From the NCBI RefSeq assembly GCF_003018255.1, contig NZ_CP027440.1: a DNA stretch of 64,000 bases; one strand, 5' to 3'. The notes beneath the pieces are model-generated. The model worked only from the letters and a program-made list of their open reading frames with translations. It searched no databases and was not told where the DNA came from. The DNA comes from Escherichia coli (GTDB lineage Bacteria > Pseudomonadota > Gammaproteobacteria > Enterobacterales > Enterobacteriaceae). Of the stretch, positions 6,519-33,920 are shown piece after piece (the stretch's first letter is position 1; the number at the start of each line of letters is the position of its first letter). The position numbers and the translations under genes are program-made.

Positions 6519-8951
6519 TTAAGCAGAGCGGGGCGGTAATTGGTAGATTTCGTTTTCCAGCTCGCTGAGCGCCTGATTATACCCGTTACGGTCGCCAAAT
6601 CCGGTTTTAATAATCTCCGGTAAGGTGCCCATGCTGTCGAATGGTTTAAGTTTCAGCACCTGAATACTTTCGATCTCCTGTACGCCCGCATCGGCGTATT
6701 TATCCAGCAGATTATCGAGCACGGCTTGCGCTGCTTCAGAGTATTTTGTGAAGTAGTTCCGCTTGCGCACGTTCTCGGCGCGCTCTTTGCGGGTTAACGG
6801 CGGCTGACCATACACTACGTGGCAAAGCATGTCGAACGGGTCGAGATCTTTACCGACTTCTTCTGCCAGTACTTCCCAGATGATCCCCTGTTGTTCCAGC
6901 TCGTGAATGATCGCTTCTTTGCGATCGGCGTCCTGCCACTTGCGGGTAAAGTCATCCAGCGAGGCATATTCTTTGAGCAGTGTTTTGCGGGTGTAATCTT
7001 TAAAAGATTCGGTAACCAGTTTACCGTCGGCATCGTAATACTGAACACGCTGCGCAATAACGCCCACCGCTACACCGTTGACGTGAAACTTGCGGATTTT
7101 CTTCTCGTCTTCTTCCGGAAGTGGGCCGACATCATCGGTATCGGTAACCTGGTATGGTGGCGCAGGCGGTTCATCAACGCCTGTTACCTGTTCGTCGTCA
7201 TGTTCGCTGATTTCTTCGAGTTTCTCTTCAAAATCAGATTCTGGATCGGCGATATCCTCTGATGTGGTATCCATGACTTTTTCGGGAATGCCATCGAAAC
7301 GCTCATCGGCAAACAGTTCGGTGGCTTTTTTAAAGTCGAGGATGGTAAACCAGAGTTTGCCGTAACGTTCGTCGATGCGTGTACCACGACCGATAATTTG
7401 CTTGAATTTGGTCATCGACTGGATGTTCTGGTCCAGTACTACCAGTTTGCAGGTTTTAGCATCCACACCAGTGGTCATCAGCTCTGAAGTGGTCGCGATA
7501 ACCGGGTACGCTTTTTTCGGGTTGATGAAGTTATCCAACTGAGCTTTGCCAATTTCATCATCGCCGGTGATTTTCATGACGTATTTGTCGTTCTTTTTCA
7601 CCTGCTCCGGGTTGAGATTCACCAGGGCGCGGCGCATACGTTCTGCATGATCGATGTCGTTACAGAAGACGATGGTTTTATCCATCGGGTTGGTGCGCTT
7701 GAGGTAGTCGGTAATGGTTCTGGCAACCAGTTCTGTCCGTTCGTCGATTACCATCGTGCGATCGAAATCTTTCTGGTTATAGATACGATCGTCGATCACT
7801 TCGCCGTTTAAGTCAGTTTGCCCTTTGGTTGGGCGCCAGCCTTGCAGATCAACATCAATATCAACACGGACAACTTTATAAGGGGCGAGGAAGCCGTCTT
7901 CGATCCCTTCTTTTAGCGAGTAGACGTAAACCGGATCGCCGAAGTAATCCGTGCTGGAGACTTCATGCGTCTCTTTTGGCGTGGCGGTTAAGCCAATTTG
8001 GGTGGCGGAACTGAAATAATCAAGGATCTCTCGCCAGGCGCTGTCTTCGGATGCGCTGCCGCGATGGCATTCGTCGATCACGATCAGATCGAAGAAATCT
8101 GGTGCGACTTGTTTAAACGCTTTTTGGTCTTCCTCCGGGCCAGTTATAGCCTGATAGAGCGCGAGGTGAATTTCATAAGCGGGATCAATGGTGCGTCCGC
8201 TGACTTTGGTCATTGCCGTACCAAATGGCTGGAAATCATTATTTTTGGTTTGGTCGACCAGAATGTTGCGATCGGCAAGGAACAAAATGCGTTTTTTATT
8301 TTTTGATTTCCACAGGCGCCAGATGATCTGGAATGCGGTATAGGTTTTCCCTGTTCCGGTCGCCATGACCAGCAGAACGCGGTTTTGCCCGTTGGAGACG
8401 GCTTCAATGGTTTTGTTGATTGCCTGAAGCTGGTAATAACGAGGCGATTTGCCGCTGCCATCGTCGTAATAGTCCTGAGTAATCACCGGAAGCTGAGCTT
8501 GTGTGTATCCTTTCCAGAGGCAGAATTTTTGCCAGAGTTCAGCGGGGGAGGGGAAGTCATCCAGCGTTATTTGCTTTTCAAGGCATTCACCTTCAGCTGC
8601 GGTGGCATCGCGGAAGATAAAGCCATCACCGTTGGTGGCAAAAACAAAAGGAACGTCCAGCAGGCGCGCATATTCAATGCCCTGTTGCATCCCTTTGCCA
8701 ATTTCATGTTTGTTGGCTTTTGCTTCAATCACGGCTAAGGGAATGCCTGGTTTGTGATACAGCACGATGTCAGCAGATTTTACCGTTCTGCGTGCCGCAA
8801 CTTTACCACGTACGATGACTTTACCGTTCCGGAGTTTGACCTCCTGTCTGATTTGCGTTGTGTTGTCCCAGCCTGCATTGAGAATGGCTGGCATAACGCA
8901 TTTGGTAATGATGTCTGCTTCCGTCAGGTTACTTAGGTTCAGTTCCGCCAT
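6519..8951 (-). CDS. hsdR: Type I restriction endonuclease subunit HsdR, 810 aa (EcoAI-like / type IB size class)
   Basis: Helicase motifs [11 protein letters not shown] (Walker A) and VIDECHRG (DECH box); 810 aa is far shorter than EcoKI-type HsdR; gene order hsdR-hsdM-hsdS on the minus strand. Confidence 0.9.
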
Positions 8952-9091
8952 GGGGTGTTCTCATCTAAATGCGATGCGTAAATTCTACACAGAAAAATAG
9001 ATGAATTCATCTGTTCAAAGAGTATTATCAGCGTTAAGTCACTGTTTTAAAGGTATTCTTGAGTTTCATCAATAGCTGGATAAGGATTCAT

Positions 9092-10060
9092 ATGGAGAAT
9101 GTTCGGTTCTTGCAAGGAGTGAAACAATATTTTTGTACTAAGGCATTAGATGTCATTCTGCTAATTTATCTACTCCTTGGTTTTATACTTCTCCCTTATA
9201 AATATCTGTGGAAAGATATTATTTTATCTCTGTACTTTGTTGGTATTCTTCTTTATGCATTAGTGGAAGAAAATCGCATTGCAGAATATATGGGGTATTT
9301 TGTTAAGTTCAGTAATAAAAACAGGTTGAATAGTTGTGCTGCCTGGTGTTCACTTATTGCATGGTTTATATTTTTGTTTTTTGTGCTTTCAATTAATATT
9401 TTTCCAGTCAGTGCCTCTGTATATATTTTTAGTGCTTTTTCATTATTTGTTTTTCTGGGGGGTATTTTTATTATATTAGAGTTAGAGTTTAAAGAAAATA
9501 AAAAATTAATGATTATTAGGTCTGTGACTATAGCAGTCATGCCAATTATATATTTATTCACAAGTAGTTATGCTTCCAGTTTATTTTTAAGTTTGAGTAA
9601 TCTAAACATTACGCTAACTCCATGGGTTGAGTATTTCTGGAAAGGGATGGTTTTTATGTTGCTTTTCTTCATGTTAATGCAACTTATTATCTATTTTGCT
9701 TTTTTAACTCTGGGGACTAAATTAAGTGTGTATAGGTTGTTTATACTTGCCGGAGCATTTGTAGTATCTACTTTTTTAGTGGCTTTTGCTTTAAAAAATG
9801 TAGAAGGTATTTCGTACTACGTTTTAAAAAGCACCATAGATTTTGAATGGCGTAATCAGATTAAATGTGGCCAGTTGAATATTTCACGTTCGAATGAAAA
9901 GTATTTTGGGTTTAATACTGATAAATATACTGTATTTTATTCCGGCAGAGATGGTAAATGGGGCTTTGATGAGTTGAAATGTAAGAAAGGTTCTGACAGG
10001 AGAGATGCATATTCTATTGAGAATGTCTCAGAATATAACGTGCCTGGATGGCTGAAATAA
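9092..10060 (+). CDS. Hypothetical polytopic membrane protein (about 7 TM helices plus 80-aa hydrophilic C-terminal domain), very AT-rich gene
   Basis: Long ORF in AT-rich DNA; ATG at 9092 preceded by AAGGA (the ORF track begins at a TTG at 9059); hydrophobic segments throughout; lies where K-12 has mrr; I recognise no family. Confidence 0.55.
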   Translation: MENVRFLQGVKQYFCTKALDVILLIYLLLGFILLPYKYLWKDIILSLYFVGILLYALVEENRIAEYMGYFVKFSNKNRLNSCAAWCSLIAWFIFLFFVLSINIFPVSASVYIFSAFSLFVFLGGIFIILELEFKENKKLMIIRSVTIAVMPIIYLFTSSYASSLFLSLSNLNITLTPWVEYFWKGMVFMLLFFMLMQLIIYFAFLTLGTKLSVYRLFILAGAFVVSTFLVAFALKNVEGISYYVLKSTIDFEWRNQIKCGQLNISRSNEKYFGFNTDKYTVFYSGRDGKWGFDELKCKKGSDRRDAYSIENVSEYNVPGWLK

Positions 10061-29881: not shown

Positions 29882-30355
29882 TTATACGCGAGGGCGCTTG
29901 CGGTACAACCATAATCCAGGAATGGAAAGACCGATGGATAACGCACCAACAATTGATGAAGCTGTAAGAAAGTTGGTTAACAGGGTAATCATCAACGGTT
30001 CGCTGTAACCTAGCTGGCTGATTTTTACCGCCGAAATCATTGCGGTATAAGCCGATATGCCAGGGAACATAGGAATAACAGCCGCCACGGTAAACACTTT
30101 CGGATGCGCCAGATACCAGCGCGACCATTGAATACCAATGGTGCCGACCAGCATAGAAGCCATAAAAGTTGACCACTCAATATTCAGCCCGCTGGTCATT
30201 AAGATCATTCGGGAACCATGACCTATCGAGCCAAGCAGCGCACACCAGCGTAACGCCCGCACGGGAACGTTGAACACCATCGCAAAGCCGACCGCAGGAA
30301 TGGCGGCGAGGATCATATCCTGCGCCAACGCTAACAGAAATTCGATCACACCCAT
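29882..30355 (-). CDS. yjjB: ThrE-family (DUF3815) inner membrane protein YjjB
   Basis: [24 protein letters not shown]... 157 aa; overlaps the yjjP stop by 10 nt. Confidence 0.8.
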
Positions 30356-31116
30356 CCGCGTAGCCCCCAAATCGTCAGTGCCATCACCACGCCGACGCAG
30401 GTAGCCAGTGTCAGCAGACTGGCGATCGCCCAGCGTGCCAGTCCGGTATTGATGTGGCCTTTAAACATATCGGCGACGGCATTAATCAACGGAAAACCCG
30501 GCACCAGCAGCAGAACGCTGGCGGCCATCGCGATAGTGGGTGTATTGCTGAAAGTGGGAAGTTGCAAAAGCAAACCGGAAATGGTGGTGGCGGCGAAAGC
30601 GGTGAGGCAAAAGTTGATCTGTGGATGAAGATGACGTTGTGCCAGCAGCTGGCGGATATACATCGCGACCGTACTGGCAAAGAAGGTGATGACGGCACCA
30701 TCCCAGCCACCTTTATTGAGTTTACAGAAACAGGCGCAAGAAAGGCCGACCATTAAGGCTACCAGCCATCTCGGGTAACGTAATGGCTGAATTTGGCTAA
30801 ATCGTTTCTCTACACCTTTGTAATCCAGCAGATGATGCTCCGCCAGAATCACAATGTGCTGGACTTCAGTCACCACATGCATATTAATGCCGCGATCGTG
30901 ATTTTTTCGTGTCGATGTCAGGCATTGCCCATCTTTAATGGTTGTCAGCACTATGGCGTTCGAAGAGATAGAACTTTCGACGCTGTCCATTCCCAACGCC
31001 CGACCCAGTCGTGAGGAAAGCTCATCAACCAACGCGCTTTCCGCACCATGTTGCAAAAGAAATAATCCACACTGGATACAAAGCCGTGTTACGGCTCGCT
31101 GTTGCTCAGTTTGCAT
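30346..31116 (-). CDS. yjjP: ThrE-family (DUF1212) inner membrane protein YjjP
   Basis: [30 protein letters not shown]... 256 aa. Confidence 0.8.
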
Positions 31117-31734
31117 AACTCGCCCTTTGTCATAGACGTGCTGCGTATTGTTCAGATAATGAGAATCCATTTGTATCATGAAGCACGGTTGTTTTGCGGC
31201 AGGTTAAGATCAAAATTGCGCTGATTAATCCTGGTTATCGGGAGAAGCTCGGTGTTAAAAAGCGAATTATCTCTCGTCGCAAACAAATTATCGCATGAAT
31301 ATTATCACTATAATGAATTTATTGTTTAGCCCTTACGAATCAGGATAAAAGATAACTGGGCGCGTTTTTTAATTTTTACAAGTTAAAACTATCAGATTTT
31401 ATTGAATAAATATTGATTGTGTGATTTTGCATTCTGCTGGAAGGGATATCAGTTAATTATAAATTAAATGAATGAGAATTCTGTTTTTCATTAAGTATTT
31501 CTAACAACTTAATGTAGATATTTTAAATGTCTCCAGGCTATTTCACCAGGTTATCATTTGATGCTAACCTTCTGACACATGCAGTGGAGTTGTTGTGCAG
31601 CAGGAGTATGCTGATATGAAAGTGAATGCTAAGGATAATTTATTCGCTTAATCTATTAATTTGCTGGAAACATTTAAGGAATGAATATCCTGAATAAACC
31701 ATCATGATTTTTAGACAGTGGATGTGGAGGAAAT

Positions 31735-32460
31735 ATGTTGCCAGGATGCTGCAAAAATGGAATTGTTATCAGTAAAATACCTGTTATGCAAGCAGGGTTA
31801 AAAGAGGTCATGAGGACTCACTTCCCTGAATATGAAATAATATCCAGCGCCTCTGCGGAGGACCTTACCTTATTACAATTACGTCGTTCCGGATTAGTCA
31901 TTGCTGATTTAGCCGGTGAAAGTGAAGATCCACGTTCTGTTTGTGAACATTATTATTCTTTAATCTCACAATATCGGGAAATTCACTGGGTTTTCATGGT
32001 GTCACGCTCCTGGTATTCCCAGGCAGTAGAACTGCTTATGTGCCCTACGGCGACGTTATTGTCTGATGTTGAACCCATTGAGAATCTGGTCAAGACCGTA
32101 CGTTCCGGCAATACGCACGCAGAGCGTATCAGCGCCATGCTGACCTCTCCGGCAATGACTGAAACTCATGATTTTAGCTATCGCTCCGTCATTCTCACTC
32201 TTTCAGAGCGCAAGGTACTGCGGCTATTAGGTAAAGGATGGGGCATCAACCAGATAGCTTCATTGCTTAAGAAAAGTAATAAAACTATCAGCGCCCAAAA
32301 AAACAGTGCGATGCGTCGACTGGCAATTCACAGCAACGCTGAAATGTATGCATGGATAAATAGCGCGCAGGGTGCAAGAGAACTTAACTTGCCTTCTGTT
32401 TATGGAGATGCCGCAGAATGGAACACAGCCGAATTAAGAAGAGAAATGTCGCACTCATAG
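31735..32460 (+). CDS. yjjQ: LuxR/FixJ-type transcriptional regulator YjjQ
   Basis: 241 aa with C-terminal LuxR HTH; GGAGG Shine-Dalgarno; preceded by a roughly 620-bp AT-rich intergenic region. Confidence 0.85.
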
Positions 32461-33095
32461 AAAAATGCGTCATGAGCAGTATCGGTATTGAGAGTTTATT
32501 CAGAAAGTTTGCGGGTAACCCTTATAAGCTCCATACCTATACCAGTCAGGAGTCATTTCAGGATGCCATGTCGCGGATCTCGTTTGCGGCGGTCATTTTT
32601 TCTTTTTCTGCCATGAGAAGTGAGCGCAGAGAGGGATTATCTTGCCTGACTGAACTGGCGATTAAGTTTCCGCGTACCCGGCGTTTAGTTATTGCGGATG
32701 ATGATATTGAAGCTCGGCTGATTGGTTCATTGTCGCCATCACCGTTGGACGGTGTATTAAGTAAAGCGTCAACGCTGGAGATTTTTCATCAGGAACTCTT
32801 TTTGTCATTAAATGGTGTACGTCAGGCGACCGACCGACTGAACAATCAGTGGTACATTAATCAAAGCCGAACGCTAAGCCCGACGGAGAGAGAAATATTG
32901 CGCTTTATGTCGCGTGGCTACTCAATGACACAAATTGCCGAGCAGCTTAAACGCAATATCAAAACGATCCGTGCACATAAATTTAATGTGATGTCGAAAC
33001 TGGGCGTCAGTTCTGATGCAGGGTTGTTGGAGGCCGCAGATATTCTGTTATGTATGCGGCATTGCGAAGCAAGTAATGTGTTGCATCCCTATTAA
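32418..33095 (+). CDS. bglJ: LuxR/FixJ-type transcriptional activator BglJ
   Basis: [31 protein letters not shown]... 225 aa; overlaps yjjQ by 43 nt. Confidence 0.9.
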
Positions 33096-33131: not shown

Positions 33132-33920
33132 TCATTTCAGCGTACAATCGCCACATTGCTGCACATCCGGTAAGCGATAACGCTGGCAGCAAGTGCGGCG
33201 CACCAGCAGGCCGTCGCGCAGTACCACGGTACGCCAGAGTGGATTATCTTCACCGTTCGTGAGCATTTTCTCAAAAAAGAGGGCATGGCGCAGCGATTCA
33301 ACCGTCGCCTCGCCAAGCAGCTGTTTCATCTCAGTCAGATACCAGTTGATCAAATAACCGGTATTGCTCCAGATAAGTTTGCCGTTGATCTCTCCCGTCG
33401 CTTCTAATGCCTGCACTACCGGAACAAGCGCCTGGCTGATTAACGTTTCCATTCGCTGCTGCGGCGAATGTAGTGTTGCGTTTTTATCTTCACACACATC
33501 GACCCAGAAACAGGCGGCGCGTCCGGTTTCGTGAAACTCAACGTGGAAATGTTCCGGCGACACATCTAATGCTTTTTCCTGCGTCAGCAGCGCCAACATT
33601 AATGGTGGCACCATCAGGCCGATATACCATTGTGCCCATAGTGAGATCAGCGGTTTGTTCTCGCGGATCATCAAGGGTTGGTTGCGGTAGATATGATCGG
33701 AATAGACCGCCAGTTGAGAACTTAGCGTATTCGGTGATGACCATTGCGCCAGCGTCATGGCACGGAGCGGTGCGGGTTCATCCAGACGGATAAACTCCAG
33801 CAAATGTTCACGATGTTCGGCGATCGTCGCCCGTACGGCTTGTGCAAGCCCAGCATCCTGCGGCTGGAGATGCGTTCGCCAGATAACATCTTCATAGAGC
33901 GGTGCGGAACGATAGGCCAT
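33132..33920 (-). CDS. fhuF: Ferric-siderophore reductase FhuF (2Fe-2S, C-terminal CC-x10-C-x2-C)
   Basis: 262 aa ending ...RRTCCQRYRLPDVQQCGDCTLK. Confidence 0.9.
   Translation of the reverse strand: MAYRSAPLYEDVIWRTHLQPQDAGLAQAVRATIAEHREHLLEFIRLDEPAPLRAMTLAQWSSPNTLSSQLAVYSDHIYRNQPLMIRENKPLISLWAQWYIGLMVPPLMLALLTQEKALDVSPEHFHVEFHETGRAACFWVDVCEDKNATLHSPQQRMETLISQALVPVVQALEATGEINGKLIWSNTGYLINWYLTEMKQLLGEATVESLRHALFFEKMLTNGEDNPLWRTVVLRDGLLVRRTCCQRYRLPDVQQCGDCTLK

Follow-up and report, generated by a model that had tools for sequence, protein, structure and literature searches.

Gene organization at the yjjP-yjjQ locus

The region under study is the spacer between the divergent yjjP-yjjB and yjjQ-bglJ units, which occupies positions 31117-31734 (618 bp) of the 64,000-nucleotide stretch of E. 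coli chromosome that was analysed as a whole, hereafter the window. Its limits are exact, as the spacer is bounded by the yjjP start codon (reverse complement of 31114-31116) and by the yjjQ ATG at 31735, and they agree with the RefSeq annotation of both the closest genome and K-12. On the minus strand yjjP (30346-31116, 256 aa), a putative succinate exporter in the K-12 annotation, is the first gene of its unit and overlaps yjjB (29882-30355, minus strand) by 10 bp, while on the plus strand yjjQ (31735-32460, GC 44.8%) and bglJ (32418-33095, GC 45.1%) overlap by 43 bp, both encoding LuxR/FixJ-type regulators and both falling under the 51% GC average of the window. The closest genome and K-12 MG1655 are annotated alike, with dnaC-dnaT-yjjB-yjjP on the minus strand followed by yjjQ-bglJ (plus strand), fhuF, yjjZ and leuVPQ, so that the gene identities, the divergent layout and the overlapping yjjQ-bglJ operon proposed in the first-pass annotation of this DNA were read correctly. 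Translation of yjjQ is preceded by a Shine-Dalgarno GGAGG at 31726-31730 on the plus strand, the first four bases of which are invariant in 25 of 25 aligned sequences. At the far end of the operon, 36 bp lie between bglJ and the convergent, Fur-regulated fhuF (33132-33920), and a serum transcriptome reports bglJ as up-regulated along with the Fur regulon; this serum signal could stem from fhuF, through antisense or read-through transcription, and not from an active yjjQ promoter.

An older yjjP start, the ATG at 31179 giving a 277-aa product, was rejected on two grounds: a +1 indel in the cryptic-clade Escherichia sp. E1V33 breaks the frame, and in all genera the alignment of homologues begins at residue 1 of the 256-aa protein. 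Counted from the older start the spacer is 31180-31734, or 555 bp, and 555 bp is reportedly the length of the region named in the abstract of a 2008 study by Stratmann, Madhusudan and Schnetz (J Bacteriol 190:926), the title of which includes the divergent yjjP gene; the two lengths coincide because yjjP was then annotated from ATG 31179.

The corresponding spacer of K-12 MG1655 (4602859-4603476) is also 618 bp long and aligns with that of the window without gaps at 96.1% identity. Of the 24 substitutions, 22 fall within 31255-31500, which gives a divergence of about 9% there vs about 0.5% in the flanks. The K-12 region likewise has the same flanking genes, and the promoter hexamers, the MarA box and the conserved blocks described below are identical in the two. 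The spacer allele of the window is an uncommon one, with 21 complete E. coli genomes at least 99% identical to it and most at 95-99%; the flanking 2.9 kb is at least 99% identical in 262 genomes. One genome, H12, has an IS1 in place of yjjQ, and about 19 records with split spacer matches may carry IS insertions.

Base composition and DNA shape of the spacer

The spacer had been described from its letters as roughly 620 bp long, markedly AT-rich and rich in homopolymeric A/T tracts. The first two properties are borne out in full, as GC content is 0.337 (33.7%) vs 0.510 for the whole window, and among all 63,383 windows of 618 bp just 892 are as AT-rich, every one of them in the yjj region or in the hsdR-yjiA region at about 8800-9750. 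The composition is most extreme in a core at 31237-31530, with 28.2% GC overall and 22% in its lowest 100-bp stretch, and less so at the edges, where the leftmost 120 bp on the yjjP side have 41.7% GC and the rightmost 204 bp on the yjjQ side 36.8%. Within Escherichia no other part of the spacer is less conserved than this core, which is the presumptive nucleation domain for H-NS. Homopolymeric A/T tracts are indeed present, with 12 runs of at least four (19.4 per kb vs 10.5 per kb in the window, about 1.85-fold), but they do not exceed what the composition alone would give: dinucleotide shuffles of the spacer contain 12.2 +/- 2.6 such runs, from which it follows that the runs are a consequence of composition.

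Curvature, which the first-pass annotation had proposed to examine and which is a frequent though not an obligatory property of H-NS-silenced regions, is not unusual. In a dinucleotide wedge model, the outcome of which is a soft one, the spacer ranks at the 47th percentile among windows of its length, with shuffled versions just as curved; the sole local peak of the spacer above the 99th percentile of the window is at 31210. Similarly, a scan of the spacer for the 10-mer TCGATAAATT, reportedly the high-affinity H-NS nucleation motif of Lang et al. 2007, gave no match at one mismatch or fewer. Four matches with two mismatches were found, at about 4.7-fold the window average, a density that is expected for AT-rich DNA.

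An even more AT-rich stretch, the extreme of the window, lies at 8800-9750, where GC content drops to 29% over 618 bp, below that of the yjj spacer. It is located between an EcoAI-family hsdR and yjiA and holds two hypothetical genes. At least 80% of a 2.5-kb hsdR-yjiA query is carried by only 400 of the 5,382 matching genomes, which identifies the stretch as a variable segment beside a type I restriction gene, and it is likely to be a further H-NS target.

Conservation across the Enterobacteriaceae

AT-rich DNA of this kind may be read as the mark of foreign origin, with H-NS acting as a xenogeneic silencer of a recently acquired yjjQ-bglJ island. The reduced GC content of yjjQ and bglJ would agree with such an origin, as would the statement in PMC2646131 that H-NS targets are often horizontally acquired. 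The distribution of the locus largely refutes it. A 2.9-kb query around the spacer, annotated with yjjB, yjjP, yjjQ, bglJ and fhuF, matches 5,424 of 5,426 complete E. coli genomes, and the divergent yjjP and yjjQ-bglJ synteny itself is found in 5,423 of the 5,426. It extends to more than 20 genera of Enterobacteriaceae, including Klebsiella, Kluyvera and Raoultella. Because the synteny is family-wide, the locus is ancestral rather than a recent foreign island, and we regard recent acquisition as a highly improbable source of the AT-richness. By comparison of these sequences, the arrangement of yjjP opposite yjjQ-bglJ with an AT-rich upstream region is ancestral to the Enterobacteriaceae.

We scanned for yjjQ homologues with one genome per species and kept 80 loci. 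In most of them a divergent yjjP lies 390-710 bp upstream of yjjQ; the intervening DNA has 32-44% GC, the loci as a whole 47-55%. This layout occurs in Escherichia, most Citrobacter, Salmonella diarizonae, Enterobacter, Lelliottia, Leclercia, Phytobacter, Trabulsiella, Superficieibacter and Silvania. A second layout, with a gap of about 2.6 kb between yjjP and yjjQ, is seen in Klebsiella, Kluyvera, Raoultella, the C. amalonaticus group and Intestinirhabdus (loci L026, L029, L034, L040, L065, L081 and others). In one K. pneumoniae locus (L070, 653-2735), reading of the ORF translations identified the intervening genes as pobA, encoding 4-hydroxybenzoate 3-monooxygenase, and the AraC-type regulator gene pobR. 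Loci with the larger gap retain both an AT-rich region upstream of yjjQ (320 bp, 31-40% GC) and the dyad described below.

What has been retained in the spacer is largely its composition. Across 25 species of Enterobacteriaceae the 320 bp upstream of yjjQ range from 27.5 to 40% GC although the sequence is mostly unalignable, a combination that fits selection on composition. Within Escherichia, mean pairwise identity among seven lineages is 0.54-0.74 in the centre of the spacer vs 0.80-0.95 at its edges. AT-richness that is conserved while the core sequence drifts would fit a reader of composition and shape such as H-NS, with sequence-specific elements added at the edges. We infer that what the core has to supply is base composition and not sequence.

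H-NS silencing and LeuO relief

The first-pass annotation took the spacer for an H-NS-silenced, LeuO-activated region, and this matches the literature on the K-12 allele, which is 96% identical to that of the window and free of indels. In K-12 the yjjQ-bglJ operon is repressed by H-NS and activated by LeuO, with H-NS repression dominating so that the locus is kept OFF, and the BglJ produced when LeuO activates the native operon is too scarce to be of consequence in the laboratory (PMC5025477). In another study bglJ was deleted from hns stpA strains because the H-NS-repressed operon would otherwise be expressed (PMC3950696). Comparison with published H-NS data is likewise supportive, the table of a genomic SELEX with RpoD holoenzyme listing the spacer as 'yjjP < HNS > yjjQ', that is, as bound by both H-NS and RNA polymerase (PMC3946193). 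Shared control of yjjP-yjjB, also anticipated in the first-pass annotation, agrees with the K-12 literature, in which H-NS represses both divergent units. Repression of both units by H-NS and activation by LeuO are thus shown by published experiment in K-12. H-NS and LeuO control of this locus is already known, indeed textbook, and its confirmation here adds little.

Where within the spacer these proteins act is a separate matter. LeuO has, according to Fragel et al. 2019, a 19-bp core palindrome (7-5-7) at cas and leuO, and from the K-12 sites we re-derived it as ATATTCA-N5-TGAATAT (ATATTCACAGTATGAATAT at cas and ATATTGATTTGGTGAATAT at leuO). Allowing up to three mismatches, this palindrome has five matches in the 64-kb window vs 2.4 expected, and two of the five lie in the AT-rich spacer. 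One, ACATTTAAGGAATGAATAT at 31670-31688 on the plus strand, has two mismatches and is the best match in the whole window; the other, ATATTGATTGTGTGATTTT at 31410-31428 on the plus strand, has three and is identical to the leuO site at 15 of 19 positions. A half-site of the core, TGAATAT, is present on the minus strand at 31296-31302, overlapping an extended -10 of yjjP that is specific to Escherichia. LeuO is tentatively predicted, from these resemblances, to contact the spacer at 31296-31302, 31410-31428 and 31670-31688, although matches with two or three mismatches count for less in DNA this AT-rich.

The predicted positions may be set beside the abstract of the 2008 Stratmann study, which reportedly has H-NS both in the centre of the region and distal to the promoters, and sites for LeuO in the centre, distal to the promoters of yjjQ, as well as overlapping that of yjjP. 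Taking this abstract together with composition, conservation and the sites of IS insertion, H-NS probably nucleates on the 28%-GC centre of the spacer and from there silences the promoters at its edges.

Other regions of the circuit offer a comparison. The promoter regions of the bgl operon and of leuO are also AT-rich and silenced by H-NS, with relief by LeuO and BglJ-RcsB, belong to the same circuit and have LeuO as an antagonist; unlike the yjj spacer, bgl has H-NS sites on both its upstream and its downstream side and BglJ-RcsB as its activator, whereas autoregulation of yjjQ-bglJ by BglJ-RcsB has not been reported. The cas (CRISPR-Cascade) promoter region is also an H-NS-repressed, LeuO-activated AT-rich spacer, and it is the source of the LeuO core palindrome ATATTCA-N5-TGAATAT, of which the copies in the yjj spacer are degenerate, with two to three mismatches.

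yjjP-side promoters and insertion sequences

Upstream of yjjP, a conserved promoter-like element is TGATACAAA at 31170-31178 on the minus strand, an extended -10-like sequence with the consensus TGnTAnAA across genera. It is the predicted proximal yjjP promoter, and the transcription start that it would direct, at about 31163, lies inside the old 277-aa ORF. An Escherichia-invariant block follows at 31202-31227 (minus strand), with TTGATC (GATCAA on the plus strand, 31210-31215) invariant in 26 of 26 aligned sequences, namely the window and 25 loci of other species. TTGATC stands about 35 nt upstream of the proximal extended -10 and contains a Dam GATC site. That these two conserved elements lie partly within the former 277-aa ORF favours the shorter, 256-aa start of yjjP. 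The block is a candidate upstream activator or repressor site for yjjP, and the highest predicted local curvature of the spacer falls in it. On hand inspection of the alignment TTGATC fitted neither a -35 hexamer nor an FNR or CRP site, and these assignments were rejected.

Further from yjjP, a second Escherichia-invariant block, ATGAATATTATCA at 31295-31307 (minus strand), reads on the minus strand as the extended -10 TGATAATAT, corresponds to a predicted yjjP promoter at 31300-31308 with a start near 31291, and contains the LeuO half-site TGAATAT. In view of the 2008 abstract, this block is a candidate for the distal yjjP promoter that is reportedly overlapped by a LeuO site. A third yjjP-directed promoter, ATGAAA-17-TTTAAT, was predicted from the RpoD SELEX (PMC3946193) and is located in the window at 31463-31491 on the minus strand. 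Conservation of this promoter does not reach beyond E. coli proper.

Experimental evolution in the mouse gut bears directly on this part of the spacer, IS insertions in the yjjP promoter region having arisen there repeatedly and been beneficial. The supplementary tables of that work place them at -111/-500, -185/-430 and -256/-363 relative to yjjP/yjjQ. As the spacers are colinear these positions can be transferred to the window, where the IS1, IS2 and IS5 insertions, 111, 185 and 256 bp upstream of yjjP, correspond to about 31227, 31301 and 31372. On this mapping the conserved proximal promoter block of yjjP (31163-31227) lies on one side of all three sites and the AT-rich core on the other. 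In the clone with IS1 at -111 of yjjP, yjjP mRNA, reported for aerobic growth, was raised 2-fold and not abolished, which suggests that a working yjjP promoter is contained within 111 bp of the ATG. Together, the insertion sites and the raised mRNA suggest that separating the yjjP promoter from the core relieves silencing; alternatively, the additional yjjP expression may come from an outward-facing promoter of the IS itself.

These insertions also weigh on the simplest account of the spacer, namely that it is a neutrally drifting gap flanked by ordinary constitutive promoters, its AT-richness having no regulatory role. The fast-evolving core, about 9% divergent from K-12 vs about 0.5% in the flanks, is what such drift would produce, and neither the A/T tracts nor the curvature exceed compositional expectation. 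Against this, AT-richness is kept in every genus examined despite the turnover of sequence, published experiments show H-NS repression, and IS insertions that part yjjP from the core were selected, one of them raising yjjP expression. Neutral drift is in our judgement extremely improbable, and the H-NS-silenced, LeuO-relieved control region remains the preferred reading.

Sequence-specific elements on the yjjQ side

On the yjjQ side we predict a sigma-70 promoter, CTGATA-17-GATAAT, at 31611-31639 on the plus strand, with transcription probably starting at about 31646. The same hexamers were predicted in PMC3946193, and they are conserved within Escherichia, with an invariant -10. Upstream of them, gcatcaaatgataac at 31550-31564 on the minus strand is an exact match to a published MarA box: in enterotoxigenic E. 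coli (ETEC) H10407, MarA ChIP-seq gave a strong peak (+++) at yjjP<>yjjQ with the box gcatcaaatgataac (PMC5684230). Binding of MarA at 31550-31564 is thus published for ETEC, and the box is largely conserved within Escherichia.

A further conserved element on this side is a dyad, T(T/A)AG-N5-CTAA, present here as TAAGTATTTCTAA at 31492-31504. It is 13 bp long, family-wide, and located about 240 bp upstream of yjjQ. The exact pattern was found in 40 of 79 loci, each time 198-261 bp ahead of the yjjQ ATG, compared with 1.15 loci when the upstream regions are shuffled. In most genera a hexamer, T(T/C)TAA(T/A), follows exactly 17 nt past the dyad (31522-31527 in the window, plus strand). By its sequence this hexamer is possibly the -10 of an upstream yjjQ promoter, with a weak -35 (TTCTAA) inside the dyad and a start near 31534. 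The dyad could accordingly be the site of a dimeric protein or, equally, form part of a weak -35/-10 pair of such a promoter.

Several known regulators were considered for the dyad and rejected. A SlyA/RovA site, either as the 12-bp TTAGCAAGCTAA or as TTA-N6-TAA, is at odds with a dyad that is 13 bp long and reads TTA-N7-TAA in all 40 loci, and the spacing of RcsA-RcsB and BglJ-RcsB sites is mismatched as well. The consensus sequences of Lrp, OxyR and GadE do not appear to fit the dyad either. Among the SlyA overexpression entries shown, yjjQ is absent. That the dyad and its 17-nt partner, kept while the AT-rich surroundings turned over, constitute the site of an undescribed or unassigned regulator is a proposal that we make tentatively, considering it a minority prospect.

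These elements raise the possibility that sequence-specific regulators, MarA/SoxS/Rob at 31550-31564 and a putative dimeric protein at the dyad, are the real switch of the locus, with H-NS as a background. Such a switch complements H-NS silencing and does not exclude it. It would be in keeping with the strong MarA peak in ETEC and the exact box in the window, with the recurrence of the dyad (40 of 79 loci vs 1.15 expected) over a fixed 198-261 bp range, and with the lack of any known laboratory condition under which LeuO lifts H-NS repression (PMC5025477). On the other hand, the evidence for MarA concerns binding and not expression of yjjQ or yjjP, the spacing of the dyad misfits both SlyA and the RcsA-RcsB box, and the dyad may simply be a promoter part (weak -35, 17-nt spacer and -10). 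We therefore hold a specific factor to be a doubtful candidate for the principal switch. The description of the spacer as a nucleoid-protein binding platform is in turn supported, but not in the sense of a purely non-specific one, since conserved sequence-specific elements and a published MarA site are present.

Control at the level of RNA found no counterpart in the searches made. No family was matched in an Rfam scan of the spacer and its flanks at E <= 1, the leaders presumed for yjjQ and yjjP showed no signal of structure on folding (z-scores +1.36, +0.46 and +0.09), and a terminator scan found none.

A model for the yjjP-yjjQ control region

We propose a model for the spacer that most reasonably fits the published experiments and the features described above, and we hold it with high confidence as an explanation of the whole: an H-NS-silenced, LeuO-relieved control region shared by both divergent operons. 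The 618 bp would serve as a common regulatory region for yjjP-yjjB, encoding a membrane exporter, and for yjjQ-bglJ, encoding two LuxR/FixJ-type regulators. The 28%-GC centre would recruit H-NS, leading to a repressive nucleoprotein complex that keeps the promoters at both edges of the spacer nearly off under laboratory conditions. The LysR-type regulator LeuO would bind the spacer at several places, including over a yjjP promoter, and by restructuring or displacing the H-NS complex would derepress yjjQ-bglJ. Specific factors, MarA and the putative dyad-binding protein, may then act on top of H-NS. Relative to the established picture the new points are modest ones: the H-NS target is ancestral and not imported, its core conserves composition but not sequence, and a handful of short elements is strongly constrained.

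The locus feeds a known circuit, in which BglJ-RcsB acts as activator of leuO, bgl and some ten further loci and YjjQ as repressor of flhDC. Furthermore, yjjPB is listed as exporting succinate, and adaptive IS insertions have repeatedly struck the DNA upstream of it in the mouse gut. The strongly constrained short elements could guide the search for a natural inducing signal. Finally, a regulator acting at the dyad, if there is one, could provide the physiological signal, long missing, by which the 'cryptic' yjjQ-bglJ/LeuO/bgl circuit is unlocked.
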